Source: Syntrophorhabdaceae bacterium
GTDB taxonomy: Bacteria > Desulfobacterota > Syntrophorhabdia > Syntrophorhabdales > Syntrophorhabdaceae
Assembly: GCA_963666485.2 (NCBI GenBank)
Contig: CAXXUO010000001.1
Span: 192,001-256,000 of the forward strand
Length of the DNA stretch: 64,000 bases
Reading direction: 5' to 3'
Part shown: one piece after another, positions 5,312 through 59,449 of the stretch
Layout of the letters: each line of letters starts with the position of its first letter
How positions within the stretch are numbered: position 1 is the stretch's first letter
Notes under the pieces: generated by a model
Database searches by the model: none
What the model saw: only the letters and a program-made list of their open reading frames with translations
What the model was told of the DNA's origin: nothing
Translations under genes and position numbers: made by a program

Positions 5312-5519
5312 ATTAATCACGTACATTCAACGCGTTCTTCCCCGCTGAGATTCAAGGGGCGTTGAAGCCCCCCAAACACTCCGGACAACTGAGTCAACAA
5401 CGCTCCCTTTTTTATATTGAGTGACTCGATATTCCAAAGTTAAGGATCTGCCCGATATATTACTTTTTAACGAACGTTCCTAATCACCCGAATTATTGAA
5501 GATCGTTCGAATCCTCTTC

Positions 5520-6526: not shown

Positions 6527-6645
6527 ACCCGGCAACGACCTACTTTCCCACAGAGTCACCCCTGCAGTATCATCGGCGCGGTAGAGCTTAACTGCCGTGT
6601 TCGGGATGGGAACGGGTGTGGCCTCTACGCTATGGTCACCGGGAA
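6527..6645 (-). rRNA. rrf: 5S rRNA
   Basis: Reverse complement contains cccatcccgaacac and gaaagtaggtcgttgcc; ends approximate. Confidence 0.97.
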
Positions 6646-6705
6646 ACTTTTTGAATCTATAAATTTTTAGGACAACTATATACGTTATTGAAAATTTTTG
6701 ATTAA

Positions 6706-9709
<3,004 letters not shown>

Positions 9710-9766
9710 AAAAATCAAAAATTTTCAAAACATATATAGTTGTCAAAGAACATTCAAACCATTTAC

Positions 9767-9842
9767 TGGTGGAGGTGAACGGGATTGAACCGATGGCCTC
9801 CTGCGTGCAAGGCAGGCGCTCTCCCAGCTGAGCTACACCCCC
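9767..9842 (-). tRNA. tRNA-Ala(TGC)
   Basis: GGGGGTGTAGCTCAG...TTGCACG...CCTCCACCA, 76 nt, CCA encoded. Confidence 0.97.
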
Positions 9843-9926
9843 AGAAGTGCTGCAGTATATTTTTCAGAGTTCGGAGTTCGGATTAACATCTGATCTCCTA
9901 TCGAATAAACTCATCACTGCCTATAA

Positions 9927-10000
<74 letters not shown>

Positions 10001-10059
10001 CAAGGTACAAATGATTCTTATTATAATAACTAAATAGCAGGCCCACGTCGTCATCGTCT

Positions 10060-11624
<1,565 letters not shown>

Positions 11625-32832: not shown

Positions 32833-33187
32833 TGGTGGAGGCGGTGGGAATCGAACCCACGTCCAGAAAAGAAGGCGTCAGACAGACTACATGCTTAGTC
32901 AGCGTATTAGATCTTAAACACCATGGCACCCGCTGACGAGTTCCCTGCTGTTCCAGCCTATAAGGTTTCGCCCGGCACTATAGGCGTCCCGCCGGACTAT
33001 CCCGCTAAGAATGACACCATGCACGGACCTGGAAGCGGGAGGAAGGCCCGGATGATGTGGCTGCTCTAGGCAGCCAGTGCGTAGTCGTATGACTCTGCAG
33101 TTGTGTTTAGTTCCGCTTGGGTACGGGTAAGCAGTAACCCGGCATGCCTCTCTGGCCCTTGCATCCCTGTCGAAGCCTGTCGCCCCC
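32833..33187 (-). ncRNA. ssrA: tmRNA
   Basis: 5' GGGGGCGAC, 3' TTCGATTCCCACCGCCTCCACCA; tag reading frame (A)AESYDYALAA*. Confidence 0.95.
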
Positions 33188-43835: not shown

Positions 43836-43903
43836 GGACGAAGCCTCCTTTAAGCCTGTGCATACTTTACATTATTCCGGTCAAATTTCAAGGGCTATGG
43901 ACG

Positions 43904-43932
43904 AAAAAAACCCCGTCTTTGATGGCGGGGTT
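43904..43932 (-). terminator. Terminator after nuoN
   Basis: aaccccgtc/ggcggggtt stem with a T run on the minus strand. Confidence 0.75.
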
Positions 43933-43954
43933 CAGGATGCTCAATAAAGTTCGT

Positions 43955-45415
43955 TTAACCGAAGATACCGACGGCCTTCTGCGCCATCACTATGAATACC
44001 TTCGGGAAAATACCCATGTACAGGAGGGCCAATATGCAGATGAGCATGACAAGCCCATACTGGGGCGCCCGGTCGGCTGTTCCCGACTCAGCGACAGGTT
44101 CCTTGAAATACATGTACATCATCACCCTGAGGTAGTAGTATGCGGCCACGACGCTGTTCAGGAAGCCGATGATAGCAAGCCAGTAAAACTGGGATTTGAC
44201 CGCCGTACTGAAAACATAGAACTTGCCCATGAACCCGGCAAGCGGCGGCACGCCGGCAAGTGACAGGAGAAAGATACTCATGCAAAGGGCTATGAACGGG
44301 TAGCGTGCGCCAAGCCCTGCAAAACTGTCGAGGTCGCTTCCGTTGTCGCCCTTCCGCTGCATCATGATAACAGCGGTGAAGGCGCCGATGTTCATGAATG
44401 TGTATGCGGCGAGATAATACAGCATGCTCGACGCCTGGGCCCTGTCGCCCGTGATAAAGGCAACCAGGATATACCCGGCATGCGCAATGCTTGAATATGC
44501 CAGCATCCTCTTGATGTCACGCTGGACGAGCGCTGTGATGTTCCCGACGGTCATCGTAAGCACCGCCAAAACCCATATGATCTCCGTCCAGCCAAACTGG
44601 AACGGGAGGAACGCCGTGAAAAAGACGCGTATCAGTGCGCCGAATGCGGCGGCCTTCACACCGGTCGCCATGTATGCGGTTATCGACGTCGGTGCGCCCT
44701 GGTAAACGTCCGGTGTCCACATATGAAAAGGCACCGAAGCGATCTTGAACCCGAAGCCGACAAGAAGGAAGCCAAGGCCGATCAGGAACATGGTAACCGA
44801 GAACGGCTGTTTCATGAGGAAGTATCTCTTCAGTTCGACCACGTCTATTATGCCGGTGGACCCGTATATCATGGACATGCCGTACAGGAGAAACCCTGTC
44901 GCGAATGCACCGAGGAGAAAATATTTCAGGGCTGCCTCGACGGATGCGATATTGCCCCTCAAAAGGCCGCAGAGAACATAGATCGAAAGGGACATCACCT
45001 CGAGCCCGATGAATATCGTGATGAAATGATGCGACGAGGTCATGACCATCATGCCGAGAACGCCGAACATGAGCAGCGAATAATATTCGCCTCCCCCTAT
45101 CTCCTCCCGGTCGGCATATCTTAAGGAAACGAGTGACACGAGGATGAGGATGGCGAGGAACATTATTTTAAAGAAGGTCCCGTAATTGTCGATCGTGTAA
45201 AGCTGATTGAAGATATCGAGGTTCGTCCCCCACAGGTTGGCTGTGAAGATAAGCGCCAGCAGGGAGCCGAATATGCACAGGGAACCGGAGATCTTCGACG
45301 CCACGGGGCCCTTCGTCAGGCCGCCTATGATAAGCAGCAGAAGTCCGAACCCGGTGATCATGATCTCGGGTAATATCCATCTAAATTCGCAGGCTGGTAT
45401 TAAAGCGTCCATCAA
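43955..45415 (-). CDS. nuoN: NADH-quinone oxidoreductase subunit N
   Basis: EAALKYFLLG, FKIASVPFHMWTPDVYQGAP, KRMLAYSSIAH. Confidence 0.96.
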   Translation of the reverse strand: MMDALIPACEFRWILPEIMITGFGLLLLIIGGLTKGPVASKISGSLCIFGSLLALIFTANLWGTNLDIFNQLYTIDNYGTFFKIMFLAILILVSLVSLRYADREEIGGGEYYSLLMFGVLGMMVMTSSHHFITIFIGLEVMSLSIYVLCGLLRGNIASVEAALKYFLLGAFATGFLLYGMSMIYGSTGIIDVVELKRYFLMKQPFSVTMFLIGLGFLLVGFGFKIASVPFHMWTPDVYQGAPTSITAYMATGVKAAAFGALIRVFFTAFLPFQFGWTEIIWVLAVLTMTVGNITALVQRDIKRMLAYSSIAHAGYILVAFITGDRAQASSMLYYLAAYTFMNIGAFTAVIMMQRKGDNGSDLDSFAGLGARYPFIALCMSIFLLSLAGVPPLAGFMGKFYVFSTAVKSQFYWLAIIGFLNSVVAAYYYLRVMMYMYFKEPVAESGTADRAPQYGLVMLICILALLYMGIFPKVFIVMAQKAVGIFG

Positions 45416-45423
45416 TCAGACCC

Positions 45424-47010
45424 CTATCTCGTCATATTCGTGTTCGTTGCTTCAACTGCAACTTTCGCCGTGGACCCGGTATTCTGTTCAAGCATCCTCG
45501 CCTGGGCATTCCTGTTCTTGACGAGGCTTAAATACTCGGTAACCGATGTATCCATTTTATTGAAGAACATCTTCGGGTAGATACCCATCAGAAGGATAAA
45601 GAAGACCATGCAGCACAGGATGGTTATTTCGCGGCCTTCAAGGTCTTTGAGTTCCCTGTTGGCGTCCTTCGTAACAACGCCGAACATGACCCTCTGGAAC
45701 ATCCAGAGCATGTACACCGCGCCGAGGATGACACCCGTCGTCGCGAGTATGCCGTAGACCGTGTTGGCCTTGAACGCGCCAAGCAGGATAAGGAACTCAC
45801 CCACGAAGCCATTCGTCCCGGGCAGGGCTATGGATGAAAGCGTTATGATCATAAAGAAAACGGCAAATATGGGCATAACCTTCGAGATCCCACCGAAATC
45901 GGCGATCATCCTCGTGTGCCTTCTCTCATATATCATGCCGACGATAAGGAAGAGCCCGCCGGTGGAGATGCCGTGGTTGAGCATCTGGTAGATGCCGCCC
46001 TGGACGCCCTGCATGTTGAAGGCAAAAATACCGAGCATGACGTAACCTAAGTGGCTCACGCTCGAGAAGGCGATAAGCCGCTTGAGATCGGGCTGCATCA
46101 TGCTGACGATCGCGCCGTAAATGATGCCGATGACAGCGAGTATGGACATGAGGGGGACCGCATCAATCGCGGCAGCCGGGAACAGGGGGATCGCAAACCG
46201 GATGAAACCGTATGTTCCCATTTTCAGGAGAACACCGGCGAGGATGACACTGCCGGCGGTAGGTGCCTCGGTATGGGCATCGGGCAACCATGTATGCACC
46301 GGGAACATCGGCACCTTGATGGCGAACGACAGGGCGAATGCGCCGAACAGCCAGTACTGTTTCGCGATCGGTATACTCGCCTTATACAGTTCCATTACGT
46401 TGAACGTATAGATGCCGCTCTGTGCGTAATAGTAGAAGTACAGGTAAAGTATGGCGACCAGCATGAGAACGCTGCCTGCCATCGTGAAGAGAAAGAACTT
46501 TATGGCTGCGTAAATGCGGTTCGGGCCGCCCCATATGCCGATGAGAAGGTACATCGGGATGAGCATCAATTCCCAGAAAACGTAGAAGAGAACGAGGTCG
46601 AGGGCGCAGAGTGTACCGATCATTGCCGTTTCCAGGAAAAGGAACGTGATATAGTATTCCTTCACCTTGTCCTCGATCGCCTTCCATGAACAGAGCACAC
46701 AGATCACCGTGAGGAACGTGGTGAGAAGGACGAGCAGGAGGCTGATACCGTCAATGCCGATATAGTAGCTGATACCCCAATCCGGGAACCAGTCGGCTTT
46801 TTCGACAAACTGCATTCCCTTCGCTGTATTGCTGAACTTGTAAAAGAGCGGGACAGACGCGAAGAGTTCGAACAGGGAGAATACCAGCGTGGCAGACTTG
46901 ATGAGAAGGGTGTTTTCGCGCTTTACGAAAAGCAGCAGCACCGCCCCCAGAAGAGGGAAGAATATCAGGAATGTAAGTATTGGTATACCGAAAACTGAGA
47001 ACTCCGTCAT
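45424..47010 (-). CDS. nuoM: NADH-quinone oxidoreductase subunit M
   Basis: FYVFWE, KVPMFPVHTWLPDAHTEAP, LLKMGTYG. Confidence 0.96.
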   Translation of the reverse strand: MTEFSVFGIPILTFLIFFPLLGAVLLLFVKRENTLLIKSATLVFSLFELFASVPLFYKFSNTAKGMQFVEKADWFPDWGISYYIGIDGISLLLVLLTTFLTVICVLCSWKAIEDKVKEYYITFLFLETAMIGTLCALDLVLFYVFWELMLIPMYLLIGIWGGPNRIYAAIKFFLFTMAGSVLMLVAILYLYFYYYAQSGIYTFNVMELYKASIPIAKQYWLFGAFALSFAIKVPMFPVHTWLPDAHTEAPTAGSVILAGVLLKMGTYGFIRFAIPLFPAAAIDAVPLMSILAVIGIIYGAIVSMMQPDLKRLIAFSSVSHLGYVMLGIFAFNMQGVQGGIYQMLNHGISTGGLFLIVGMIYERRHTRMIADFGGISKVMPIFAVFFMIITLSSIALPGTNGFVGEFLILLGAFKANTVYGILATTGVILGAVYMLWMFQRVMFGVVTKDANRELKDLEGREITILCCMVFFILLMGIYPKMFFNKMDTSVTEYLSLVKNRNAQARMLEQNTGSTAKVAVEATNTNMTR

Positions 47011-47020
47011 GTACGCACCT

Positions 47021-49006
47021 TTACAAGATTCTCGAAATAAGATAACCGACCACTGCTATCGCGCCGAGGATGACCGCAAATGCATAGCCCTGCACCGCAC
47101 CCGTCTGTACCTTGCGGATGATGCCGCCCACTCCGGCCAGGAGCGATGCGATACCATTCACGATGCCATCTACGATCATCTCGTCGAAAAAGTCTTTGCA
47201 GAACCTGCCGAGTTTCAGAAGGCCCCGCACGAATATGAAGCCGTACAGCTCATCTATGAAATACTTGTTATGGACCAGCGTGAACAGCCCGTGGAACTTT
47301 TCCACAAATTTCTTCGGGAGGTTCGGGTTCTTCACGTAAAAAAGCCAGGCGATGAATATGCCGAGGAGCCCGATGATAACGGCGCCTATCATGAGCTGCA
47401 TCTCCATCCCGTGATCGGCGCCCGCCGCTCCGCCGGATGAGGCGAATGCGGTGCTGATGATATTGAAGCCGCCCGCGTGCGCCGCAGCCGGTGCCGCATG
47501 GTGCCCAAATACAGGTTCCAGCCATTTCTCTATATGATTGGAGCCGCCGAGCAGGCCGGGGACGCCGACGTAGCCGCCGATTATGCTGAGGACCGCAAGG
47601 ATCATGAGAGGCACGGTCATAACCTTCGGAGACTCGTGGATGTGATGTTTTACCTCTTCATCCGCCCTGCATTCTCCGTGGAATGTGCTGAAGAACATCC
47701 GGAACATGTAGAACGCGGTCATGCCGGCTGTTATGGCGCCTATGGCCCAGAACCAGAAGCTGTTATATTTGCTGAAGGCCATCCAGAGGATCTCGTCCTT
47801 GCTGAAAAACCCTGATAAGCCCGGTACGCCCGCGATGGCGAGACATGCGATAAATGTCGTCCAGTAGGTGATGGGGGTTTTCTTGCGGAGCCCGCCCATT
47901 TTTCTCATGTCGAGTTCGCCGCTCATAGCGTGCATCACGGAACCGGCCGCGAGGAAGAGCAGGCCCTTGAAGAAGGCATGCGTCATGAGGTGGAAAACGC
48001 CGGCTGCGTATGCGCCCGCGCCCACACCGACGAACATGTAGCCGAGCTGGCTGACGGTGGAATACGCGAGGACGCGCTTGATATCGTACTGGGCTGTGCC
48101 GATCGTTGCGGCAAAGAACGCGGTCGCGAGACCGATGATCGTGACGACGAGGAGCGTCGTCGGCGCGAGGACGTACAGGAAATTAAGCCGTGCGATCATG
48201 TAGACGCCGGCGGTGACCATCGTGGCAGCGTGGATCAGCGAGCTGACAGGCGTCGGGCCTTCCATCGCGTCAGGCAGCCAGACATAAAGGGGTATCTGCG
48301 CCGATTTTCCCGTTGCGCCGACAAAGAACAGAAGCGTGATGACCGTTGCAAGCCCCGGCCCGATGAGGTGCGCGTTGGCCTGAATTTCGGAGAATTTCAA
48401 TGTCCAGATGCCCTGGGAGCCCAGGTACCCGACCAGCGTGAACACGCCGAGGAGGAACCCGAAGTCGCCGATCCTGTTGACGATGAACGCTTTTTTGCCG
48501 GCATTCGCCGCCGAGTCCTTTTCATACCAGAACCCGATGAGGAGATATGAACACAAACCGACGCCTTCCCACCCGACAAACATGAGAAGGGCGTTGTCGG
48601 CGGTGACCAGCGTCAGCATCATGAAAACGAACAGGTTGAGATAGCAGAAAAAGCGTCTGAACCCGGGGTCGTCGTGCATATAGCCGACAGAATAAATATG
48701 GATGAGTGAGCCGACACCCGAGACGATGAGGCACATGATGATGGACAAGGCGTCGATCCGGAACCCGATCGTTGTCTTGAGGTCGCCCGAGACGATCCAG
48801 TCGAACACGGTCTTTTCGAATACCCTGCTTTCCGGCGCCATCTGCAGGAACTGGACGAATATGGTTGCCGATACGGCGAAGGATGCAATAACAGCCAGGC
48901 ATGCAATCCAGGCGGTCAAAGTCTTCGGGAATTTTATCCCGAGAAGGCCATTGATCAGGAACCCGATCGCGGGAAATGCCGGAATAAGCCAGATAAGGTC
49001 AGCCAT
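47021..49006 (-). CDS. nuoL: NADH-quinone oxidoreductase subunit L
   Basis: GWEGVGLCSYLLIGFW, GKSAQIPLYVWLPDAMEGPTP, THAFFK. Confidence 0.96.
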   Translation of the reverse strand: MADLIWLIPAFPAIGFLINGLLGIKFPKTLTAWIACLAVIASFAVSATIFVQFLQMAPESRVFEKTVFDWIVSGDLKTTIGFRIDALSIIMCLIVSGVGSLIHIYSVGYMHDDPGFRRFFCYLNLFVFMMLTLVTADNALLMFVGWEGVGLCSYLLIGFWYEKDSAANAGKKAFIVNRIGDFGFLLGVFTLVGYLGSQGIWTLKFSEIQANAHLIGPGLATVITLLFFVGATGKSAQIPLYVWLPDAMEGPTPVSSLIHAATMVTAGVYMIARLNFLYVLAPTTLLVVTIIGLATAFFAATIGTAQYDIKRVLAYSTVSQLGYMFVGVGAGAYAAGVFHLMTHAFFKGLLFLAAGSVMHAMSGELDMRKMGGLRKKTPITYWTTFIACLAIAGVPGLSGFFSKDEILWMAFSKYNSFWFWAIGAITAGMTAFYMFRMFFSTFHGECRADEEVKHHIHESPKVMTVPLMILAVLSIIGGYVGVPGLLGGSNHIEKWLEPVFGHHAAPAAAHAGGFNIISTAFASSGGAAGADHGMEMQLMIGAVIIGLLGIFIAWLFYVKNPNLPKKFVEKFHGLFTLVHNKYFIDELYGFIFVRGLLKLGRFCKDFFDEMIVDGIVNGIASLLAGVGGIIRKVQTGAVQGYAFAVILGAIAVVGYLISRIL

Positions 49007-49020
49007 TTGAAACCCCTTCT

Positions 49021-49332
49021 TTAGCCTTTAAGCAGATTGAATTCGTCTACGTGTACTGTGCCCTTGTGCCTGAAGATGAGCACGAATATAGCAAGGCCCA
49101 CCGCCGCCTCGGCCGCCGCAACGGCCATGATGAAGATGACGAAGATGGCCCCGTCAAGGGAATTCAGGAAATTACCCGAGGTGATAAAGCTCAGGTTGAC
49201 CGCATTCAGCATGAGCTCTATGCACATGAAGATCACGATCGCGTTCCGGCGCGTGATGACGCCGATCGCCCCGATGGTGAAAAGTACTGCCGACAACAGA
49301 TAATAGAGGTCCTGCGGTATCTCGGGCAACAT
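49021..49332 (-). CDS. nuoK: NADH-quinone oxidoreductase subunit K
   Basis: [21 protein letters not shown]. Confidence 0.96.
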
Positions 49333-49340
49333 TATCTCTC

Positions 49341-49874
49341 CTATTCCTTTCTTTTCCTGGCAAGCAGCACCGCGCCGACGATACCGACAAGGAGAAGTAT
49401 CGAGGCGACTTCAAATGCGAATGCGTACTTGCCGTAAAGCAGGGCCCCAATCGCCCGGGTATTGCCTATCTCGGCGAGTTTCTGGGCGCTGTAGATGCCG
49501 TGCTGTCCTGAGTCGCTGTATGTGTATATGCCTGCAAGGACCTGCAGGAAGAGTGCTATCGTAATAATGGACCCGATGACTTTCGGGAAAGACTTTTTTG
49601 AGCCCCACTGTGCGCCCCATTCCAGGTGGATAAGCATGATAACGAAAAGGACGAGCATCATGATCGCCCCGGCGTATACCATGACCTGTGCGACTGCTAT
49701 GAAGGTCGCGTTGAGGGTGATGTACAGGACGGCGACGGAGAAAAATGTCACGATCAGCCATAATGCGCTGTGGATCGGGTTTTTACGTGTTACCATCATA
49801 AGGGATGAGCCCGTTGCCGTAAGGGCCATCACAACAAAGATAAACCATTTAAATCCGAGTCCAATTTCCATCAT
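49341..49874 (-). CDS. nuoJ: NADH-quinone oxidoreductase subunit J
   Basis: [35 protein letters not shown]. Confidence 0.95.
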
Positions 49875-50296
49875 TTTTTATCCTCATACATGGAAAGGAG
49901 TTTTTTCGTATCCAGCACAAAATCTTCCTTCCGGTAATGTGCCTGCTCGTAATCCTTGCCGAGGTTGATGGCATTGACCGGACATGCATCCTGGCAAAAT
50001 CCGCAGAAGATGCAGCGCCAGGGATCTATCTCGTATTTGACGGGGTAACGTTTCCCGTCGAATTTCTCGCCTATTTCAAGCGTGATGCACTGGTTCGGGC
50101 AGGCTGCCACGCACAGGCCGCACGCTACGCAGGCTGTCTCGCCGGCCTCGTTTTTCTTGAAATAATGCACGCCGCGCCATCTTTCCGGCACTTCGTGCTT
50201 CTTTTCCGGGTATTGGTACGTGATCGGCTTCGTGAACACCCGGGTGAACGTGAGCCGAAGTCCTTTAAGGAGAGGAAGGACTATCTTGTCTTTCAT
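49871..50296 (-). CDS. nuoI: NADH-quinone oxidoreductase subunit I
   Basis: TYQYPE, two CxxCxxCxxxCP motifs; ATG at 50296. Confidence 0.95.
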   Translation of the reverse strand: MKDKIVLPLLKGLRLTFTRVFTKPITYQYPEKKHEVPERWRGVHYFKKNEAGETACVACGLCVAACPNQCITLEIGEKFDGKRYPVKYEIDPWRCIFCGFCQDACPVNAINLGKDYEQAHYRKEDFVLDTKKLLSMYEDKK

Positions 50297-51294
50297 TACA
50301 GCACCCCCATTGCCACGAGGGCAGCAGTTACGACAACGTTGAGAAGCGTCAGCGGCAGAAGGACCTTCCATCCGAACTGCATGATATGGTCATATCTCAA
50401 CCGCGGATAGGTTCCCCTCTCCCAGATGAAGAAGAAGATGATCACGAAGACCTTGATGATGAACCACAGCGGCCCGAGGTACGCGGGGCCGGGGCCCATC
50501 CAGCCGCCGAGGAAGAGCGTCGTGACGATCGCCGCGACCGTGAACATGTGGGCGTATTCCGCGATCATGAACGTTGCGAATTTCATACTGCTGTACTCAA
50601 TATTAAAACCGCATGCCAGCTCGCTTTCCGATTCCGGCATGTCGAACGGTGTCCTGTTTATTTCTGCAAGGCCTGCAACCAGGTAAAAGATGAAGCCGAA
50701 GGGATACTTGACGATGAACCAGAGCCCCGACTGTGCATTGACGATCTCGCGCAGGTTGAGCGACCCGGCGATGATGATCGTGCCTATTACGGCGAGGCCG
50801 AGGGCCACTTCGTAGCTGATCATCTGGGCCGCGGCACGCAGGGCGCCGAGGACGCCGTACTTGTTGCCGGACGCCCATCCGCCGAGGACCACCCCGTATT
50901 CGCCGAGGGTAGCGAGGGCGAGGAGGTAAAGGAGCCCGGTGTCGATATCTGCGACAACCATCTTGACCTGCCTGCCCAACAATTCCACGGTCGGCCCGAA
51001 CGGGATGACGGCGAACATGCTGAGCGCCGCAAAAAGTGATATGCCGGGCGCGAGCACGTATAACACCTTGTCGGCCTCATCGGGGATGATGTCTTCCTTG
51101 AAGAAGGACTTGACGCCGTCTGCGATCGGCTGGAGAAGACCGAAGGGGCCTACCCTGTTCGGCCCGGGCCTGACCTGCAGGCGGCCGAGGAGCTTCCTTT
51201 CAAGGAGAGTGGTGTATGCCACGCACCCCATGAGAACGGCCACGACGACGATGTTCTTAACGACCATTATACCTAACGTGATAAGCTGTTCCAT
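50296..51294 (-). CDS. nuoH: NADH-quinone oxidoreductase subunit H
   Basis: RPGPNRVG, QPIADGVK, AQMISYE, NRTPFDMPE. Confidence 0.96.
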   Translation of the reverse strand: MEQLITLGIMVVKNIVVVAVLMGCVAYTTLLERKLLGRLQVRPGPNRVGPFGLLQPIADGVKSFFKEDIIPDEADKVLYVLAPGISLFAALSMFAVIPFGPTVELLGRQVKMVVADIDTGLLYLLALATLGEYGVVLGGWASGNKYGVLGALRAAAQMISYEVALGLAVIGTIIIAGSLNLREIVNAQSGLWFIVKYPFGFIFYLVAGLAEINRTPFDMPESESELACGFNIEYSSMKFATFMIAEYAHMFTVAAIVTTLFLGGWMGPGPAYLGPLWFIIKVFVIIFFFIWERGTYPRLRYDHIMQFGWKVLLPLTLLNVVVTAALVAMGVL

Positions 51295-51297
51295 GCG

Positions 51298-53712
51298 TTA
51301 ACCTTTTTTTACCGTCACTGCGATGTGTTTGGCATATCCATCGGTCAGATTCAATATGTCCTGCCTGTTCTTCAACATTCTATATTCAAGCACGCCCTTC
51401 TTCAGACCTTCTTTGATCATCGCAGGGTACTGCGCTTTTCCGTGATCGGATTCGATGACCACCTGGCCGCCTTCCGTGATCCCCAGTTCGTCAGCGTCCT
51501 CGCGCGAGATGAACAGCTTGTCGCCGGCGATCGCAGGGTTCTGGAGGTACGCCATTTTCGTATACACGCCCTTCCCTGCCAGGTGATGGTGGAAGAAGAC
51601 GTTCTTGAGGACAAGGGTGAACGGTTTCCGGGGGGCGCCTGCCCCGGCTGCGACCGGCGCGGCCTTTGCCGTACCGTTCGTGGGCTTGAGGCTCAACCGC
51701 CCGGACTCGCCCGTTACGATAAAATCCTTCTGGAAGACAACCGATGACGCCTCGGCCTCGTCCTTGTAGAGCCCGCCGCCCAGCCTGTCGAGGAGCATCC
51801 TCAGGAAATCGAACCCCGGCGACGCCTTGCCTTCGCCCCGTGCGACCGTGCGCACATATCCGTCCTCGGCGATATAGCTGCCCTCTTTCTGGGCGAAGCT
51901 GCCGGTCGGGACAACGACGTGGGCATATGCCGACGCGTTCGTTGCGAACATGTCGCATACCGCCATAAAGGCCTTGCCCTTCAGGGCTGCCTCGACGTTC
52001 TTGCCGGAAAGGTAGTGGAAAAGATCATCTTCATAGATGAAAAGCGCGTCCGCCTTGTTCAGCGCGTCCGATGGTGAAACCGCGCCGGGGAGGAATGACA
52101 GGGTGCCGACGGCATTCGACTGAAGGGCGGTCGGCATGACCACGCCTGTCTTCTGGATACCCTTCACGATACACAGGTTGAGGAGTGCCTCCATGCTCGC
52201 GATGTTGCCGCTTATGCCCGTGCCGAATATGACGGCAACAGACGATGCGTTCGAGAGGAGCTTGTAAAATTTATCAACGGCCTTTTCATCAGCACCGCTT
52301 GCCGCGACTGCATCGGCCTTGCTTCCGCTTAAACCCTCGATGCTCCCGGCATCCGGGTCGTTCTTCTTGTCGGCGATGAACTGGGCCGCTATTCCATTAA
52401 AGAATGCCGCATCCGAGCCCGGCGCGACCTTTACCCAGCAATCGCTGATGCGCGTGAGGTTCACGGGTGACGGGTCGACGACGGCTACTTTCGCCCCGGT
52501 GGTCTTCATGGCTTCCCGGACCTTGTTGGCGAGAAGGTGATTGTTCCCGAGAAGGTCCGCACCGGCAACGACGATGAGGTCGCATGTGTTCAGCGCGTCA
52601 TATTCATAAGGATACGGGATGCCCATCCGGCGCATCGTGTCGAGCACCTTGCCCGTATGGTAATACCCGGCAGTGCCAAAGACGGTCTTCGAAAATCCCT
52701 TCGCGATCTGCGTCACCAGGTAGGTTTCTTCGTTCGTTGCCCGCGGGGATACGATAAAACCGATGGTCTTGCCTTCTTTATCGAGTTTGGTCAACGCAGA
52801 TGCCGTTGCTTCTACGGCCTCGGCCAGCGTCGCTGCCGCTGCTTCCGCCCCCTGTTTGACCGTCGGTGCGGTAAGCCGCGCTTCGTTATTTGCGAAATCA
52901 TATCCAAAACGTCCCATCACGCACAGTGAGCCCTTGTTCGGCTCAAGCGACGCGTTCGTGACGACTTTCGTGATGAATTTGTCCTCGTACACATCGAGGT
53001 TGAGCGAGCACCCGAAACCGCAGTGCGGGCAGGTTGTCGTCTGCCGCTTTGTCTGCCATTTCCTGCTTTTCTGCGGGCTTTCCTGCTCGGTCAGCGCGCC
53101 GACGGGGCACATGAAGAGGCATTCGCCGCAGGAGATGCAGTCCTCGGGGACTGTCGGCTTCATCGCCGCCTCTATTCCCGTTCCCACAAGTTCCAGGACC
53201 TTCCGCCCGGATACCTCGCGGCATGCATGCACGCAGCGCAGGCACAGGACGCAGCGGTCCTCGGCATACCTGATCATCGCGGTCGCGTACGGTTTTACGG
53301 TCTTCGGCTCCCTATCCGCCTCGAGGTCGACACATTCGAGCCTGTGCTCGAAAACGAGGTCCTGAAGGCGGCACTCGCCGGCGGAATCGCAGTGCGGGCA
53401 TTCCAGCGGATGATTGATGAGGAGGAACTTAAGATATTCCTGGCGCATCGCGAAAAGCTTGTCGGACTGGGTCGTGACCGAGATACCCTCGATGGCGTTC
53501 GTCGTGCACGAGGCCATGGGTTTTTCGTACCCGTCGATCTCGACGATGCAGAGCCTGCAGGAGCCAATGGGAAGAAGGTTCTCGTGGTAGCACAGCGTTG
53601 GGATGTATATGTCGTTCTCCCGCGCAGCTTCGAGTATCGTCTTGCCTTCCTCTGTCTTTATCTCTTTGCCGTCTATCTTGAATGTTATCATTCCCGTTCC
53701 CTTTTCAGCCAA
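51298..53712 (-). CDS. NuoG/SfrA-like iron-sulfur subunit with a molybdopterin-oxidoreductase-like body
   Basis: 2Fe-2S (C..SCRLC..C), HPLECPHCDSAGEC, CVLCLRCVHAC, CISCGECLFMCP, CPHCGFGC..C. Confidence 0.85.
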   Translation of the reverse strand: MAEKGTGMITFKIDGKEIKTEEGKTILEAARENDIYIPTLCYHENLLPIGSCRLCIVEIDGYEKPMASCTTNAIEGISVTTQSDKLFAMRQEYLKFLLINHPLECPHCDSAGECRLQDLVFEHRLECVDLEADREPKTVKPYATAMIRYAEDRCVLCLRCVHACREVSGRKVLELVGTGIEAAMKPTVPEDCISCGECLFMCPVGALTEQESPQKSRKWQTKRQTTTCPHCGFGCSLNLDVYEDKFITKVVTNASLEPNKGSLCVMGRFGYDFANNEARLTAPTVKQGAEAAAATLAEAVEATASALTKLDKEGKTIGFIVSPRATNEETYLVTQIAKGFSKTVFGTAGYYHTGKVLDTMRRMGIPYPYEYDALNTCDLIVVAGADLLGNNHLLANKVREAMKTTGAKVAVVDPSPVNLTRISDCWVKVAPGSDAAFFNGIAAQFIADKKNDPDAGSIEGLSGSKADAVAASGADEKAVDKFYKLLSNASSVAVIFGTGISGNIASMEALLNLCIVKGIQKTGVVMPTALQSNAVGTLSFLPGAVSPSDALNKADALFIYEDDLFHYLSGKNVEAALKGKAFMAVCDMFATNASAYAHVVVPTGSFAQKEGSYIAEDGYVRTVARGEGKASPGFDFLRMLLDRLGGGLYKDEAEASSVVFQKDFIVTGESGRLSLKPTNGTAKAAPVAAGAGAPRKPFTLVLKNVFFHHHLAGKGVYTKMAYLQNPAIAGDKLFISREDADELGITEGGQVVIESDHGKAQYPAMIKEGLKKGVLEYRMLKNRQDILNLTDGYAKHIAVTVKKG

Positions 53713-55654
53713 CTGCGATCATGCCTATTCTGTAACAGCGAAGGCAGCGTGACGCCTCCGTGATCGCCTCATCGGTCCGGAACCCTTCCTCGAACTCTTC
53801 GAACGTCCATTTCCTGACCTCGGGGGCCATCGGCCGAAGCAGCATTCTCGGATGGTCGCCGAGGAACCCGACGTTCTCGTTCTTGTCGTACACCTTGAGC
53901 TGACCGAAGAACTTCACGTACTTTTCGCTTTCCCTGGCCTTTGGCTTCTCGCCTTTCAAATATTCGTCGATCTTCCAGGCCGCGCGCTTGCCGTTCCCGC
54001 AGGCGCGGACGAGGACATCGGGACCCGTTTCGCAGTCGCCGGCCGAGAATATGCCGGGGATGTTCGTCTCGAACGTCTCCTGGTCAACCTGGAAGGTGTT
54101 CCACTTTGTGATCGTGAACTCTTCCTTCTTTTCGAGGAATGACCAGTCGATCGCCTGCCCGATAGCCGGTATCAGGATATCGGTCTCGATCACGAATTCG
54201 GAGCCCGGAACGGGGACCGGCCGCCTGCGGCCGCTGGCGTCCGGCTCGCCGAGTTCCATGCGGATGCACTCGACGCCGACAACCTTGCCGTCCTTCTCGA
54301 TGACGCGTGACGGGTTGCACAGGTAATGGAACTCAACGCCCTCTTCCTCTGCCTCGTGGATCTCGACGGGGTCCGCAGGCATTTCCTTCTTCGTCCGCCT
54401 GTATACGAGGTGGACGTCGGGCTTGCCGATGCGGAACGATGAGCGAACACAGTCCATCGCAACGTTGCCGCCGCCGACAACCACGACCTTTTTCCCCTCG
54501 GGATACGGGTCTTTGCCGTTATTGATGTCGAGCAGGTATTTTACGCCGGCGATAAACCCGCGATAACCTGCGTCCTCACCCTGGACACCCATAGGCTGTG
54601 ACGTATGGGCCCCGACACCGATAAAGATCGCATCGAATTCCTTGCGCAGCTGCTCGAGGGTGATATCCTTTCCCATCTCGACGCCATACTTCATGGTGAC
54701 GCCGAATGATTCAACAAATTTGCCCTCAACGTCAAGGACCATCCTCGGCAGACGATAGTCGGGGATGCCGACGGCGGCCATTCCGCCCGGCTCGCCGAGT
54801 TTCTCGAAGACCGTTACCGGATATCCCATCTGGGCAAGGTAATATGCGCAGGAAAGACCGGCAGGGCCGGCACCGATAACAGCAACCTTCTTTGTTTTAT
54901 CTATCTTCGGCACGATATCGCGCTTGACGTTCTTGTCAATTTCCCAGTCCGCGACAAATCTCTTGAGGCTTTTTATGGAAATGGATTCATCGATGTTCGC
55001 GCGCCGGCAATTCGATTCGCACGGCCTTACGCAGACCCGCCCTAAGGTGCCGGCCATGCAGGTGTTCTCGCGGACGGTCTTGAGCGATTCGGTCATCCTT
55101 CCTTCGCTTATCGCCTCGACGTATGCCGGGATATCGAGCTGGCTCGGACAGACGCTCATGCACGGGGCGGTCACGGAGATCCTGTAATCGCCCGGTTTTG
55201 CCTTGCGGCCTTCGGCTATCGACTTGTCGAACTCGGGGCCGAAGAAATCGAGCGCCTGAAGGAGCGGCACGAAGCCGGTCTGCCCGATCTGGCATTTCGA
55301 CCCGTCCTTGATCTCGGCGGCGATAGCGCGTATCTTGCCGAGGTCTTCTTTCTTGCCCTTGCCGTCGGCGATCCTTTTCAGCGTTCCCAGGATAACCTTG
55401 CTTCCGATCCTGCACGGTATGCACCGGCCGCAGGATTCTTTCTGGACCGCCTCGGCGTACTTCACGGACATATCGATTATGTCCACGTTCTCATCGCAGA
55501 GGATGATGCCGTCCCATCCCATGAACGCCTTTACGGAAAGACCATTCTCGAACTCTCCGGGGAGCTTGACCTTCGGGGCTTCGAAAGACTCACGGGCCTT
55601 GCCCCTATTGTCTATTACCTCACCCTGCCAGGAACTAAAGATCACGTCAGCCAT
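53705..55654 (-). CDS. SfrB-like flavoprotein: NuoF-type 4Fe-4S segment fused to a GltD/NfnB-like domain
   Basis: VIFSSWQG start, ESCGRCIPC, GRVCVRPCE, GAGPAG, GGGNVAMD..YRR, EASRCLRC. Confidence 0.85.
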   Translation of the reverse strand: MADVIFSSWQGEVIDNRGKARESFEAPKVKLPGEFENGLSVKAFMGWDGIILCDENVDIIDMSVKYAEAVQKESCGRCIPCRIGSKVILGTLKRIADGKGKKEDLGKIRAIAAEIKDGSKCQIGQTGFVPLLQALDFFGPEFDKSIAEGRKAKPGDYRISVTAPCMSVCPSQLDIPAYVEAISEGRMTESLKTVRENTCMAGTLGRVCVRPCESNCRRANIDESISIKSLKRFVADWEIDKNVKRDIVPKIDKTKKVAVIGAGPAGLSCAYYLAQMGYPVTVFEKLGEPGGMAAVGIPDYRLPRMVLDVEGKFVESFGVTMKYGVEMGKDITLEQLRKEFDAIFIGVGAHTSQPMGVQGEDAGYRGFIAGVKYLLDINNGKDPYPEGKKVVVVGGGNVAMDCVRSSFRIGKPDVHLVYRRTKKEMPADPVEIHEAEEEGVEFHYLCNPSRVIEKDGKVVGVECIRMELGEPDASGRRRPVPVPGSEFVIETDILIPAIGQAIDWSFLEKKEEFTITKWNTFQVDQETFETNIPGIFSAGDCETGPDVLVRACGNGKRAAWKIDEYLKGEKPKARESEKYVKFFGQLKVYDKNENVGFLGDHPRMLLRPMAPEVRKWTFEEFEEGFRTDEAITEASRCLRCYRIGMIAVG

Positions 55655-55662
55655 AATCTACC

Positions 55663-56835
55663 TTATTTATCTATTTCGCCGAGGACTATGTCGATGCTTC
55701 CTATCGCTGCGACAACGTCGGCGACCAGCGATCCTTCTATCATCTTCGATATCGAGCCGAGGTTCAGGAATGAAGGCGGCCGGATCCTCACCCGGTAGGG
55801 TTTCTCCGTACCGTCGCTCACGATGTAGAACCCGAGTTCGCCCTTCGACGACTCGATAGAGGCGTAAGCCTCGCCTTTGGGCGGCCTGAAGCCGTCCGTC
55901 ATCAACTTGAAATGACGGATGAGCGCCGCCATATCATTCGCCACGTCTTCCTTTTCCGGGGGCACGTACGCCGGGGCGTCCGCTTTGATCGGTCCCTCGG
56001 GAAGTTTGTCGATGGCCTGCTGCACGATCCGTATCGATTGCCTCATCTCCTTCAGCCTGACGAGGTACCGGTCATATACGTCACCCTTCGTTCCGAGAGG
56101 TATCTCGAAATCGAAGTCTTCATAACTGGAGTACGGGTAGGCCTTGCGTACGTCATAGTTGACACCGGAAGCACGGAGCACCGGGCCCGTTACGCCGTAC
56201 GTGATCGCGTCATCGGCGCTCAAGGGACAGACGCCTTTCAGACGGCCTTTCCATATCACGTTCTCTGTGAGCAGGGTCTCGTACTCGTCTATCCTGCCCG
56301 GAAGTTCCTTGATCAAGGCCTGCGCCTCTGCGAGGAAACCTTCAGGCAACTCTTCGCGCAGACCGCCGAAACGTATGTAATCGGGCATGAGCCGTGCGCC
56401 CGAGACCTTTTCCAGGAGCTTCAGGCATGATTCCCTTTCACGGAAACCGTAGAAAAGGACCGTCATGGCACCCATGTCGAGGGCGTGTGTCGATACCCAC
56501 AGGAGATGCGCCGCGATGCGCTGCAATTCGCTCAGCATGACCCGGATGTACTGGGCCCTTTTCGGGATCTCGACGCCGATAAGCTTCTCGACGGCGAGGA
56601 CATACGCGAGGTTGTTGGACATGCCGCTTGTATAGTCGAGCCTGTCGGTCAGCGGCATACCCTGCCAGTACGTTCTGTTCTCGAAGATCTTTTCTATCCC
56701 GCGATGGAGATACCCAATGTCCGGGACGCTTGAAACGATCGTTTCGCCGTCGAGTTCAAGAACCACCCTCAGAACCCCGTGTGTTGCGGGGTGCTGAGGC
56801 CCCATATTGATCGTCATGTACTTTGTGTCAGCCAT
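55663..56835 (-). CDS. nuoD: NADH-quinone oxidoreductase subunit D
   Basis: NMGPQHPATHGVLR, GYLHRGIEK, DRLDY, GEIDK; no NiFe CxxC motifs. Confidence 0.96.
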   Translation of the reverse strand: MADTKYMTINMGPQHPATHGVLRVVLELDGETIVSSVPDIGYLHRGIEKIFENRTYWQGMPLTDRLDYTSGMSNNLAYVLAVEKLIGVEIPKRAQYIRVMLSELQRIAAHLLWVSTHALDMGAMTVLFYGFRERESCLKLLEKVSGARLMPDYIRFGGLREELPEGFLAEAQALIKELPGRIDEYETLLTENVIWKGRLKGVCPLSADDAITYGVTGPVLRASGVNYDVRKAYPYSSYEDFDFEIPLGTKGDVYDRYLVRLKEMRQSIRIVQQAIDKLPEGPIKADAPAYVPPEKEDVANDMAALIRHFKLMTDGFRPPKGEAYASIESSKGELGFYIVSDGTEKPYRVRIRPPSFLNLGSISKMIEGSLVADVVAAIGSIDIVLGEIDK

Positions 56836-57327
56836 TTATGCCTTCTCCAGGTCCACCACGAAACGCTTGTCGAAATCCTTGCCTTCGAGGGGAAACTCCT
56901 TGCACAGGGGATGTCCCTCGAAATCGTCGGGGTTATAGATCCTGCGCAGGTCGGGATGGTTAGCGAACGGCACGCCGAACATGTCGTAAATCTCCCTTTC
57001 GAGGAAATTGGCCGCCGGCCACAGGTCGCTGACCGTTTCTATGCCTTCGTCGCCGCATCTCGTCTTCACCACGATCCGTGCGTTGGTCTTGTGTGAGCGG
57101 AGGATGTACACGATTTCGAAGCGCGCCTCCTCGCCCATGTAATCGATCGCGAACATATCGACGAGCATGTTGAAGCCAAGGTCGCGGTCATATCGGCAAT
57201 GGTCGAGGGCTTCACGGATGCTGGCCTTGTCGACCATCGCGCTCGGCTCGCCGGGAGGGGTCGGTACGATCTTTATCCCGTCGGCCTTGCCGGAGAGTAT
57301 GTCCAAATATTCTTTATTATCGCTCAT
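56836..57327 (-). CDS. nuoC: NADH-quinone oxidoreductase subunit C
   Basis: [28 protein letters not shown] at 57327. Confidence 0.94.
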
Positions 57328-57818
57328 GCGCTCTTCCCGGGCAGTGATATCAAAGGCCTGTCTTTGATCGTTTCTTTCTGGATCTTCTTCTGCAGTTCTA
57401 TAATACCGGCCAGCAATGCCTCCGGCCTCGGAGGGCATCCGGGGATATATACGTCAACGGGGATTATCTGGTCCACCCCCTGAACAACGCTGTATGACCG
57501 GAAGATACCGCCGGATGACGCGCAGGCGCCGTATGCGATGACCCATTTCGGGTTCGGCATCTGCTCATAGATCCTGCGGACAACGGGGGCCATCTTCTTC
57601 GACAGCGTGCCGGCCACGATCATGAGGTCTGACTGCCTGGGTGACGGGCGGAAGACCTCCGCGCCGAAACGGGCGATATCGTATTCCGCGCAGCTGGCGA
57701 CCATCATTTCGAGGGCGCAGCAGGCAAGGCCGAACGTGACAGGGAAGAGGGAGTTTTTCCGGGACCAGTTTATAAGCCAGTCGACTGTTGATACCAATAC
57801 GTTGTTTTCTATTCCCAT
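57324..57818 (-). CDS. nuoB: NADH-quinone oxidoreductase subunit B
   Basis: [33 protein letters not shown] at 57818. Confidence 0.96.
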
Positions 57819-58162
57819 TCCAATGCACCTTTTTTCCAGATATAGAGATATCCTATGAAAAGAATGAACACGAAGATGATCATCTCGACGAACCCGAAAA
57901 GCCCGAGCCGCCGGGTGACCACCGCCCACGGGTACAGGAAGATGATTTCAATGTCGAACACGAGGAAGAGCATGGCAACGATATAATAGCGGATCGTCAT
58001 GATACGCTGGGTCGGCCCGATCGTCGTCATACCGCATTCGTAGGGGGCAAGTTTTGCTTTGGATTTCGTCCTGTGTCCGAGAACATGTGAAAAACCGATT
58101 ATAGCGGCGGCTATGATCCCGGCAAGACACATCATGACAAAGATCGCTACATATTCGAGCAT
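57809..58162 (-). CDS. nuoA: NADH-quinone oxidoreductase subunit A
   Basis: [21 protein letters not shown]. Confidence 0.96.
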
Positions 58163-58229
58163 GTCTCAGGTCCTCTTTAGAAGTCGCTGCATATCAGACA
58201 AAATGACAGAAATGGATTTTTGAGCCACT

Positions 58230-58283
58230 TTGTTCACAATTTCACAATGGCAAACTTTATCTTAATTTTGACAGTCTTGTCAA
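58230..58283 (-). promoter_or_regulatory. nuo promoter (TTGACA-18-TAAAGT) with a candidate Rex operator at 58230-58247
   Basis: TTGTTCACAATTTCACAA lies just downstream of the -10. Confidence 0.55.
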
Positions 58284-58396
58284 TCAGAAAAATAGGAATA
58301 TTTTCACTTTTCGCAGGGGGGCCATGATGTGCCGGAAACGTGTTATTACCTTCATAATGTGTGGAACATCAGATAGTTGCGAAAACAGCACCCGTA

Positions 58397-59449
58397 TCAC
58401 TGGCACTGGATGTAATTGTACGATTTCATTTTTTTTATGAAAGAATCCTTCTTTTCGGTGGGTACATTGACCCTGTACACGCCCTTCGGAAGCTTATACC
58501 TTCTCAGGTGGAGGTTGTTGTTCCGGTACGTCCGGTATGACACCTCCATGGCCTTCGCCAGGATGCACGAGTCGAACTCGTGGCTGGATTCGATGACGAC
58601 CTCGGACAGGAGGGCCGGGCGGTATAATTCCTTCTCGTCAACGCGGAACCCGTAGCGTTCCTTGTTCGCAATGATCTCCTTGAGCGCGAGTATCCTGAAA
58701 ACGTACCGCTCGGTCTCTTCCGGGAGGTACATGTCAAAAAAATCACGCGTCATCTGGTTGTCGATGGCCTCGCGCACCCGTCCGGGGCCGGCATTGTAGG
58801 CGGCCATGGCGAGGAGCCAGTCATTGAACTGGGCGTTGAGCTTCTTGAGATGACCGAGCGCCGAGCGCGTGGATTTTTTCATGTTGAACCTCTCGTCGAC
58901 AATATCATTGACGACGAGGCCCTCCAGCTTTCCCGTCTCCTTCATGAACTGCCACATCCCCCCGGCATTCGCCTTCGAGACCGCCCGGGGGTTCAGGTAG
59001 CTTTCCGTCACCGCGAGGTAAACGAGGTCTGTGGGGACCCCCATGCGCGCAACCTCTTCCGTCATCATGGGCAGGTATTTATAGTAGCGTTTTACGATGA
59101 TCGTGATGAGTCCCCGGTTCTCGAGAAGCTGGAACAGTTCGCGCTCGAACCGTTCCCGGATGTCGCCCCGAAAGATCGGGATCTTCTTGTCGCACAGCAC
59201 GAGATGGTCCGGCAGGGCGTCGAGATTGAAAATATCCGCCTGTCTCTGGAGGCGCAGAACGTCCTTTTCCAGGTCTCCCAACCTTTTGTCGACGGGCTGG
59301 GTGTTCTTCCGGGAGGCGTTCTGGGCGCCGAGGGTGTCCGCGCCGGCAAGAAGCATTGAGAAAAGAATACACGCGACGATACCTGCAATAACAAAAAACC
59401 GCCCCGGCTTTACCGCGGCGGACAGGAATCCGGATAATGCACTTTTCAC
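58397..59449 (-). CDS. MltD-like lytic transglycosylase
   Basis: LAVTES, AGGMWQFM, AAYNAG, LPEETERYV. Confidence 0.9.
   Translation of the reverse strand: MKSALSGFLSAAVKPGRFFVIAGIVACILFSMLLAGADTLGAQNASRKNTQPVDKRLGDLEKDVLRLQRQADIFNLDALPDHLVLCDKKIPIFRGDIRERFERELFQLLENRGLITIIVKRYYKYLPMMTEEVARMGVPTDLVYLAVTESYLNPRAVSKANAGGMWQFMKETGKLEGLVVNDIVDERFNMKKSTRSALGHLKKLNAQFNDWLLAMAAYNAGPGRVREAIDNQMTRDFFDMYLPEETERYVFRILALKEIIANKERYGFRVDEKELYRPALLSEVVIESSHEFDSCILAKAMEVSYRTYRNNNLHLRRYKLPKGVYRVNVPTEKKDSFIKKMKSYNYIQCQ

Follow-up and report, generated by a model that had tools for sequence, protein, structure and literature searches.

In canonical complex I, represented by Nqo1-14 of Thermus thermophilus and Nuo of Escherichia coli, eleven core subunits are joined to an input module encoded by nuoE, nuoF and nuoG. 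Variants with another head have been described. In the nuo operon of Sulfurimonas denitrificans (Suden_1822-1824), an NfnB homologue that keeps a Tyr-Arg-Arg motif and iron-sulfur cysteines replaces NuoF; the Campylobacterota operon also encodes NuoG in two copies and a non-canonical NuoE, its product was proposed to work in reverse electron transport to NAD(P)H, and the flavodoxin-dependent enzyme of Campylobacter is a further example of an altered head (10.1101/717884). The Nuo-Bfu complexes (PMC9304861) and the NUO-2 of Nitrospina and Kuenenia (PMC3578206) likewise carry an altered input module in the nuoEFG slot, with other donors or operation in reverse proposed, and for Moorella caeni a coupling of formate dehydrogenase (FDH) with complex I was hypothesised from genes at separate loci (PMC11996240). 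Here we analyze a 64,000-nucleotide stretch of the genome of a Syntrophorhabdaceae bacterium (assembly GCA_963666485.2, contig CAXXUO010000001.1, positions 192,001 to 256,000; hereafter the window), in which a complex I operon carries, between nuoD and nuoH, a 649-residue flavoprotein (X649) and an 804-residue iron-sulfur protein (G804). We read it as a complex I whose input module comes from a pair of the NADP-dependent FDH or SfrAB type, coupling NADP(H) to quinone and probably running in reverse during syntrophy, and we give this reading a probability of about 0.6. It is built on gene order, domain make-up, conserved ligands, an NADP-type motif, an active site that is dead and a layout that is conserved in related genomes.

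The operon comprises 13 consecutive open reading frames (ORFs) on the minus strand (43955-58162), which Pfam and NCBIfam identify as nuoA-B-C-D-X649-G804-nuoH-I-J-K-L-M-N (Table 1). As in canonical complex I, all eleven core subunits (NuoA-D and NuoH-N) are present, here in a single operon and in canonical order, and NuoD, NuoI and NuoN exceed the cut-offs of their NCBIfam models. X649 and G804 fill exactly the nuoEFG slot, with a gap of 8 bp after nuoD, an overlap of 8 bp between the two genes and a gap of 3 bp before nuoH; the order and tight junctions reported in a first-pass annotation of this DNA are thus confirmed. Where nuoB, nuoC and nuoI seem to overlap their neighbours by more, the cause is the choice of the longest ORF, as homologues favour later starts (M38, M38 and M26, respectively). 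Pfam matches and a check of the junctions leave no ORF space for nuoE in the operon, and X649 has no Pfam match to PF01512, the domain that binds flavin mononucleotide (FMN) and NADH. That nuoE and a NuoF core are missing, as annotated earlier, holds for this operon but not for the whole genome, where five genes carry PF01512, one of them in a second nuo operon. The remainder of the complex resembles an ordinary complex I. NuoB has the N2-type cysteines, in a 16-residue stretch and in PGCPP, which make up the motif CC...C...C, and H19 and Y68 of NuoD align without gaps with H38 and Y87 of T. thermophilus Nqo4 (2fug_4), which we take to be the residues binding the quinone head group. With these residues, and with NuoD above its equivalog cut-off, the quinone-binding module (Q-module) of the operon looks functional.

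The flavoprotein is composite. Pfam recognizes in X649 a NuoF-type 4Fe-4S region (PF10589, residues 63-144) followed by PF14691 (162-242) and PF07992 (255-553). Over 76 aligned homologues, the four NuoF-type cysteines (C75, C78, C81 and C121) are invariant, as are C165, C169, C208, C212 and C216 of a GltD/NfnB-type two-cluster domain and a pair in the C-terminal tail (C637/C640), while C199 is kept in 63. Alignments to PDB chains divide the protein in the same manner: residues from about 25 to 150 match the C-terminal region of NuoF/HydB/HoxF-type chains, and residues 156-641 match first the GltD-like part of NfnA/StnC (9bov_A, 9n5u_A and 8oh5_C), then NfnB, NfnI-L, GltD and DPD. An AlphaFold2 model built from a 27-row alignment (mean predicted local distance difference test score, pLDDT, 83.9) has NfnABC/StnC, NfnB and GltD as its best Foldseek matches. 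X649 retains only that portion of NuoF which carries the 4Fe-4S cluster; judged by its domains, it is the C-terminal 4Fe-4S domain of NuoF fused to a GltD/NfnB-type module for flavin adenine dinucleotide (FAD), as first annotated. By the same evidence its architecture is that of the beta subunits of NADP-dependent FDHs, and its homologues bear the JGI name 'formate dehydrogenase (NADP+) beta subunit'.

Which nucleotide X649 would use is suggested by its FAD and NADP(H) Rossmann domains, where GGGNVA (residues 394-399) and YRR (418-420) belong to a segment, GGGNVAMD...VYRRTKKEMPA, that is at least 95% conserved among the homologues. GGGNVAMD...YRR aligns with the same motif of five solved NADP(H)-binding enzymes (9n5u_A, 9bov_A, 8oh5_C, 4ylf_B and 5jca_L), and YRR falls on Tyr310 and Arg311-312 of Thermotoga maritima NfnB, named as ligands of the NADP phosphate in a preprint (10.1101/717884); the NADP(H)-type motif of the first-pass annotation therefore stands. 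YRR is informative rather than a constant of the family, because two paralogues of the same genome carry LEK at this place. One could still suppose that NADH is the substrate, and that the operon simply encodes a second NADH:quinone oxidoreductase with a different head, given that specificity is deduced from a motif and that two complex I isozymes are common among organisms (PMC4453560). We consider this very unlikely in view of a motif (YRR with GGGNxAMD) that is common to the five solved enzymes, strongly conserved in the homologues and, as the paralogues show, free to change.

The iron-sulfur subunit has a different origin from NuoG. Among 21 aligned homologues of G804, the ligands of all its predicted clusters are invariant (21/21): those of a 2Fe-2S cluster (C41/C52/C55/C69), of a His-ligated 4Fe-4S cluster (H101/C105/C108/C114), of two ferredoxin-type 4Fe-4S clusters (C154/C157/C160/C164 and C192/C195/C198/C202) and of a 4Fe-4S cluster of the Mo-enzyme type (C228/C231/C235/C264). 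This makes one 2Fe-2S and four 4Fe-4S motifs, the number counted earlier and presumably one 4Fe-4S motif more than in Nqo3, ahead of a degenerate molybdopterin domain. NCBIfam gives NuoG (TIGR01973) as its best model, with 334 bits against a cut-off of 470, and in the PDB the alpha subunit of the NAD-dependent FDH of Rhodobacter capsulatus scores best (6tg9_A, 255 bits), ahead of NuoG chains. We calculated a tree of 90 sequences, of which 4 are canonical NuoG, including that of this genome, and 86 are FdhA-like. The 4 NuoG split from all the others with 100% support and a branch length of 1.26 on each side. The G804 type (21 rows) is monophyletic and joins a second type with a dead active site (82% support), next to a clade formed by a third dead type and all FdhAs that contain selenocysteine (Sec-FdhAs; 84% support). 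G804 is 42-45% identical to Sec-FdhAs over the N-terminal 356 residues. On the tree and on these pairwise scores, with an identity of only 24% (177 bits) to the genome's own NuoG, we rejected the view that G804 is a diverged NuoG; together with the beta-type architecture of X649, this agrees with the earlier view that the inserted genes are not diverged nuoF and nuoG.

The molybdopterin site of G804 has decayed. In a phmmer alignment, the Mo-ligand Cys of 6tg9_A faces a Tyr of G804; when 64 alpha-type sequences are aligned with MAFFT, the column of the selenocysteine faces Leu and the catalytic Arg of PLRGQNNVQG faces Ala. The two registers differ by five residues near the Mo-ligand position, and neither places a Cys or Sec there. 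The molybdopterin domain scores 67 bits, compared to 293 bits for a Sec-FdhA of the same genome, and the catalytic set of Sec/Cys, His and Arg of FDHs, intact in 11 related loci, is incomplete in G804. From these features, G804 is an FdhA/SfrA-type alpha subunit without its active site, and not a NuoG orthologue; descent from an active FDH is likely. To the proposal that G804 is still an FDH, making the complex a formate:quinone oxidoreductase, we give next to no credence. An intact Sec-FdhA does lie beside the same nuo/X649 layout in 8 loci, and an earlier annotation called the Kuenenia NUO-2 a formate:quinone oxidoreductase (PMC3578206); in the window's G804, a Tyr or Leu at the Sec/Cys position, a stretch devoid of Cys, an Ala for the catalytic Arg and the low molybdopterin score speak against it. 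We therefore rejected FDH activity on the active-site residues, by which even residual activity is effectively excluded.

The pair thus recalls the two-subunit FdhAB (Moorella type) and the SfrAB of Geobacter sulfurreducens. SfrB is described as GltD-like and SfrA as NuoG-like (PMC7483475), and the genes of the NADPH-dependent FDH of Moorella thermoacetica are named sfrB2/sfrA2/fdhF3 (PMC13040438), which links the two sets of names. The common plan is a beta subunit made of the NuoF 4Fe-4S domain and a GltD-like FAD/NADPH part, and an alpha subunit with a 2Fe-2S cluster, several 4Fe-4S clusters and a molybdopterin fold; the alpha subunit belongs to the FdhA clade, outside the NuoG clade of canonical complex I, and stand-alone Sec-containing pairs are sister to those embedded in nuo operons. 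FdhAB and SfrAB are described as soluble; here, unlike there, the pair lies within a nuo operon and its alpha subunit lacks Sec/Cys and Arg, and this operon context argues for membrane attachment. As to the first-pass claim that an SfrAB module replaces NuoEFG, the FdhAB/SfrAB-type architecture is confirmed, with one correction: with N1b, N5, N4 and N7-type motifs kept, G804 would still serve in the role of NuoG, as a dead FdhA. Predictions of a complex of G804 with NuoI from their alignments scored 0.47, 0.00 and 0.25; they gave no answer and were used neither way.

A second group of relatives, StnABC/NfnABC (8oh5, 9bov and 9n5u), provides the best PDB matches and uses the same building blocks, including a dead FDH-like tail. 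Residues 156-641 of X649 correspond to residues 95-567 of their large subunit, and residues 102-623 of G804 to residues 563-1080 of the same chain. In those soluble enzymes, unlike here, the GltD module is inserted into a NuoG-like chain, and they need FMN-bearing NuoF-like (BfuB) and NuoE-like (BfuC) subunits, both absent from the window's operon. The partner of NfnB in NfnAB (NfnSL), the small FNR-like NfnA with its 2Fe-2S cluster and FAD, is not among the 13 genes either. These comparisons bear on the suggestion that the module bifurcates or confurcates, the NfnB-like FAD of X649 splitting or merging electron pairs so that the oxidation of quinol would drive NADP+ and ferredoxin reduction at the same time, or would run the other way, an idea in print for Sulfurimonas among the Campylobacterota (10.1101/717884). 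NfnB, the subunit of NfnAB that has the bifurcating FAD (PMC5861303), is a homologue of the flavin domain of X649, and G804 has two clusters that are absent or off-path in a canonical Nqo3-type NuoG and might form a side branch. GltD and DPD share the fold and do not bifurcate; by Pfam the operon contains no NfnA-like subunit, no FMN-bearing BfuB/NuoF and no BfuC/NuoE, and neither a ferredoxin gene nor a ferredoxin-docking feature was identified. Nothing in the analysis supports the bifurcation that the first-pass annotation had raised as a possibility, and we regard it as unlikely.

Among complexes with an altered head, the Campylobacterota enzyme is similar, by description, in having an NfnB-like protein with Tyr-Arg-Arg at the NuoF position; in the window there is, by contrast, no NuoE-like gene and a single FDH-derived alpha subunit, in a syntrophic member of the Thermodesulfobacteriota. 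An Atlas cluster from Campylobacterota with the same PF10589 and GltD make-up is a lead only. Nuo-Bfu and NUO-2 keep NuoE/NuoF-type subunits with extra clusters, and neither is described as having a GltD-type flavoprotein that lacks the NuoF core. In contrast to canonical complex I, the window's operon has neither NuoE nor the FMN/NADH domain, and has a GltD-type flavin module (FAD by homology) with an NADP-type motif. Our literature search found no paper on the present layout in Syntrophorhabdia, Syntrophales or other Thermodesulfobacteriota, though the genome paper of a cultured relative may mention the operon. A non-canonical complex I with an NfnB/GltD-type head is already known from Sulfurimonas; what differs here is an FDH-derived alpha subunit without NuoE, in Thermodesulfobacteriota.

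The layout is not peculiar to the window. With one genome per species, 213 relatives of X649 were found, and tblastn and ORF maps were applied to the best 80 loci. Nuo genes adjoin the X649 homologue in 66 of these 80 loci and are missing in 12, with 2 loci too short to tell; the neighbourhood is thus more than chance. An alpha-type gene, belonging to one of three dead types, lies between X649 and nuoH in 54 of the 66 nuo-bearing loci. In the other 12, the X649 homologue is followed directly by nuoH, and in all 8 of these for which sequence upstream of nuoA is available a Sec-FdhA is found there, its in-frame TGA flanked as in HCARL-U-HSS and its PLRGQNNVQG intact. Each of these eight loci (Table 1) looks like a complex I operon with a built-in FDH. 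Three stand-alone loci have an intact Sec-FdhA adjoining the X649 homologue and no nuo genes. The X649 homologues of nuo operons fall into three clades with good support; a single clade of 11 stand-alone forms joins these in a polytomy. Of 81 genomes sampled from the class, 33 have a full-length orthologue of X649 (at least 62% identity); for the genus the figure is 17 of 19. A G804-type gene lies directly beside X649 in 15 further genomes. Two orthologues with 3 in-frame stops each (Table 1) may be pseudogenes or assembly errors.

The stand-alone pairs are one reason to consider that X649 and G804 form a soluble SfrAB-like oxidoreductase passing electrons from NADPH to ferredoxin or another acceptor, and that this enzyme is merely co-transcribed with a headless 11-subunit complex I. 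The Nuo arm would then be fed by reduced ferredoxin, like cyanobacterial NDH-1, and coupling would be by a diffusible carrier and not by docking. X649 and FdhA pairs occur without nuo genes in 12 of the 80 loci, published descriptions have SfrAB as soluble, and headless 11-subunit complexes that presumably use ferredoxin have been discussed for Moorella (PMC13040438). This alternative is nonetheless rather unlikely: the pair occupies exactly the nuoEFG slot, conserved across clades; the parts retained are precisely the N3 domain of NuoF and the N-terminal clusters of the NuoG type; and with the catalytic site of G804 lost, the pair would have no second substrate site beyond its iron-sulfur clusters.

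We return to the reading in which the pair is the head of complex I. Its presence in the operon suggests that NADP(H) is connected to the quinone pool of the membrane in a proton-coupled manner. NuoA-D and NuoH-N, which make up the membrane arm and Q-module, would be ordinary, and the input head would descend from a two-subunit enzyme of the FdhAB/SfrAB type. In the forward direction, a hydride from NADPH would pass to the FAD in the GltD-type domain of X649, and single electrons would then move through the two 4Fe-4S clusters of that protein to the retained NuoF-type cluster, at the N3 position. From there they would reach the 2Fe-2S cluster of G804 (the N1b position) and its 4Fe-4S chain, and continue through NuoI and NuoB to quinone at NuoD/NuoH, coupled to proton translocation. 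With a dead molybdopterin site, G804 would act as no more than a wire and scaffold. In complex I, the cluster domain of NuoF contacts NuoG; that domain, along with the N-terminal clusters of NuoG type in the alpha subunit, may have been kept for plugging a GltD-type NADPH dehydrogenase into the iron-sulfur chain, and the FMN/NADH domain, NuoE and the Mo site may have been lost as superfluous. In an obligate fermenter or syntroph the reverse run would be the most likely, with acyl-CoA oxidation supplying the quinol, the proton-motive force (pmf) lifting its electrons to NADP+, and the resulting NADPH feeding NADPH-linked hydrogenases or FDHs. NADPH-type hydrogenases in the genome and the syntrophic, fermentative life of the relatives make such a pmf-driven quinol:NADP+ reaction attractive. 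We infer from the sequences that the pair assembles on the Nuo arm and is specific for NADPH, and likewise infer the path of the electrons, their quinone partner and the direction of the reaction. Of the first-pass interpretation, the part on architecture is supported and the part on function is plausible.

Several observations weigh against this proposal. The preference of X649 for NADPH is read from a motif. The likeness to SfrAB is taken from published descriptions of architecture and from annotation. In the tree, the clade of G804 (types C and D) is a neighbour of the Sec-FdhA clade and not part of it, with supports of only 82 and 84 at the joining branches. That relatives of X649 with an FdhA partner do without nuo genes in the 12 stand-alone loci implies that the pair can work as a soluble enzyme. 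The second nuo operon of the genome, whose subunits are 24-54% identical to their counterparts in the window, is a complete and canonical nuoA-N operon, including nuoE, nuoF and nuoG (Table 1); NADH oxidation therefore does not require the variant. The first-pass annotation would count canonical nuoEF elsewhere, if they supply the input module, against its own interpretation, and such genes do exist, yet within this complete operon of their own. In favour of the proposal, canonical NuoG exceeds the cut-off in only 4 of 25 related genomes, and 18 of the 25 have a match of the G804 kind without TGA (294-359 bits), which means that no canonical NuoG was found to serve this arm in most relatives; two such matches, once extracted, are 78% and 88% identical to G804. 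Against it, no menaquinone pathway is recognizable in this 99%-complete genome, a search result that is not proof of absence: MenA reaches 91 bits for a cut-off of 102, MenD and MenB fall below their cut-offs, and PF02621 (MqnA/MqnD) has no match. The quinone partner is accordingly a presumed one.

Other genes of the genome bear on the fate of NADPH. A 1147-residue 2Fe-2S/GltD/[FeFe]-hydrogenase fusion contains the YRR motif, a 1017-residue NuoF-GltD fusion is followed by a 574-residue HydA, and a third locus encodes an 899-residue Sec-FdhA; together these genes point to an NADPH-centred metabolism of H2 and formate. A distant Nuo-like cluster on contig 6, with NuoL/M-, NuoH-, NuoB- and NuoD-like genes (30% identity to NuoD), may be a group-4 hydrogenase-type complex.

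We can go one step further, tentatively. Syntrophic Thermodesulfobacteriota may have recruited an NADP-dependent FDH as the head of complex I, in stages that would survive in living genomes: a soluble Sec-FdhAB, then Sec-FdhA and FdhB in a nuo operon (a built-in FDH), then a dead FdhA as a new 'NuoG'. The end product, in the window, would be a pmf-driven quinol:NADP+ oxidoreductase giving NADPH to NADPH-linked hydrogenases and FDHs, that is, the missing reverse-electron-transport step of syntrophic oxidation of aromatic compounds and fatty acids. This scenario is possible, and we hold it less probable than its negation. How obligate syntrophs bring the electrons of acyl-CoA oxidation, at the level of quinol, up to H2 or formate is a long-standing question, for which an NADP(H)-headed complex I and NADPH-type [FeFe]-hydrogenase fusions would offer a concrete route, from quinol through a pmf-driven reverse complex I to NADPH and then to H2 or formate. 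The variant also bears on how headless 11-subunit complexes are fed and on the origin of the N-module of complex I: an FDH alpha subunit would have turned into a NuoG-like wire a second time, with intermediates in related genomes that make the evolutionary series from FDH to wire unusually clear. The genus label of the closest public contigs has cultured members, which makes membrane assays and complexome profiling feasible.

Table 1. Positions of the operon genes and of other features mentioned in the text; plain numbers refer to the window, and the remaining positions to the genome, contig or locus named
Feature	Position	Strand	Identification or remark
nuoA	57809..58162	-	PF00507, 125 bits
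nuoB	57324..57929 (longest ORF; likely start M38)	-	PF01058, 102 bits
nuoC	56836..57438 (longest ORF; likely start M38)	-	PF00329, 138 bits
nuoD	55663..56835	-	TIGR01962, 583 bits, cut-off 459 exceeded; alignment to 2fug_4
X649, flavoprotein, 649 aa	53705..55654	-	Pfam, NCBIfam, PDB alignments, conservation in 76 sequences, AlphaFold2/Foldseek
G804, iron-sulfur protein, 804 aa	51298..53712 (start may be the ATG at 53691, M8)	-	Pfam/NCBIfam, invariant Cys, alignments, tree
nuoH	50296..51294	-	PF00146, 413 bits
nuoI	49871..50371 (likely start 50296; 141 aa)	-	TIGR01971, 140 bits, cut-off 113 exceeded; two CxxCxxCxxxCP motifs; alignment
nuoJ	49341..49874	-	PF00499
nuoK	49021..49332	-	PF00420
nuoL	47021..49006	-	PF00361 and PF00662
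nuoM	45424..47010	-	PF00361 and PF01059
nuoN	43955..45415	-	TIGR01770, 461 bits, cut-off 333 exceeded
TTGACA-18-TAAAGT site	58283-58254		upstream of nuoA
MltD-like transglycosylase gene	58397-59449	-	upstream of nuoA
Tetratricopeptide-repeat gene	42651-43835	-	just after nuoN
ADP-forming acetate-CoA-ligase-like gene	39242-41281	-	
Transfer-messenger RNA gene	32833-33187	-	
Ribosomal RNA operon	6527-11624	-	5S, 23S, two transfer RNAs, 16S
Second, canonical nuoA-N operon	G000:C1:804568-818998		same genome
Distant Nuo-like cluster	G000:C6:27313-31700		same genome
2Fe-2S/GltD/[FeFe]-hydrogenase fusion	L140 (C1:1214783-1218226)		same genome
NuoF-GltD fusion and HydA	L141 (C1:1350953-1356000)		same genome
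Sec-FdhA, 899 aa	L142 (C1:1317000-1323000)		same genome
Sec-FdhA locus L064	FdhA 2809-5499; nuoA from 5684; X649 homologue 8567-10516		X649 homologue alone between nuoD and nuoH
Other loci of the L064 kind	L052, L061, L065, L066, L070, L081, L082		
X649 orthologue with in-frame stops	G002:C1:20490-22439		
X649 orthologue with in-frame stops	G061:C27:12862-14820		
Syntrophales-type HdrA/FdhF locus	L044:602-7023		
Other Syntrophales-type HdrA/FdhF loci	L041, L043, L048, L050, L051, L060, L063, L071, L072, L088		

Signals around the operon were of little help. In 43000-59000, the scan gave 10 promoter-like sites for 10.0 expected and 22 terminator-like sites for 14.2 expected; these counts are not informative, nor is the TTGACA-18-TAAAGT site. 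Among the sequencing runs holding 51298-55654, none listed is an RNA run, and the four holders are DNA or contig entries from one study. The tetratricopeptide-repeat gene was considered as a member of the system and rejected, having no homologue in the 80 loci. The MltD-like transglycosylase gene on the other side of the operon is conserved in the 12 closest loci only. In the Syntrophales-type loci, Pfam places before nuoA an HdrA-like gene, an MvhD/FlpD gene, an unassigned 264-residue ORF and a 688-residue FdhF-like gene with an in-frame TGA. Elsewhere, the window contains a ribosomal RNA operon, a transfer-messenger RNA gene and an acetate-CoA-ligase-like gene, all on the same strand as the nuo genes.

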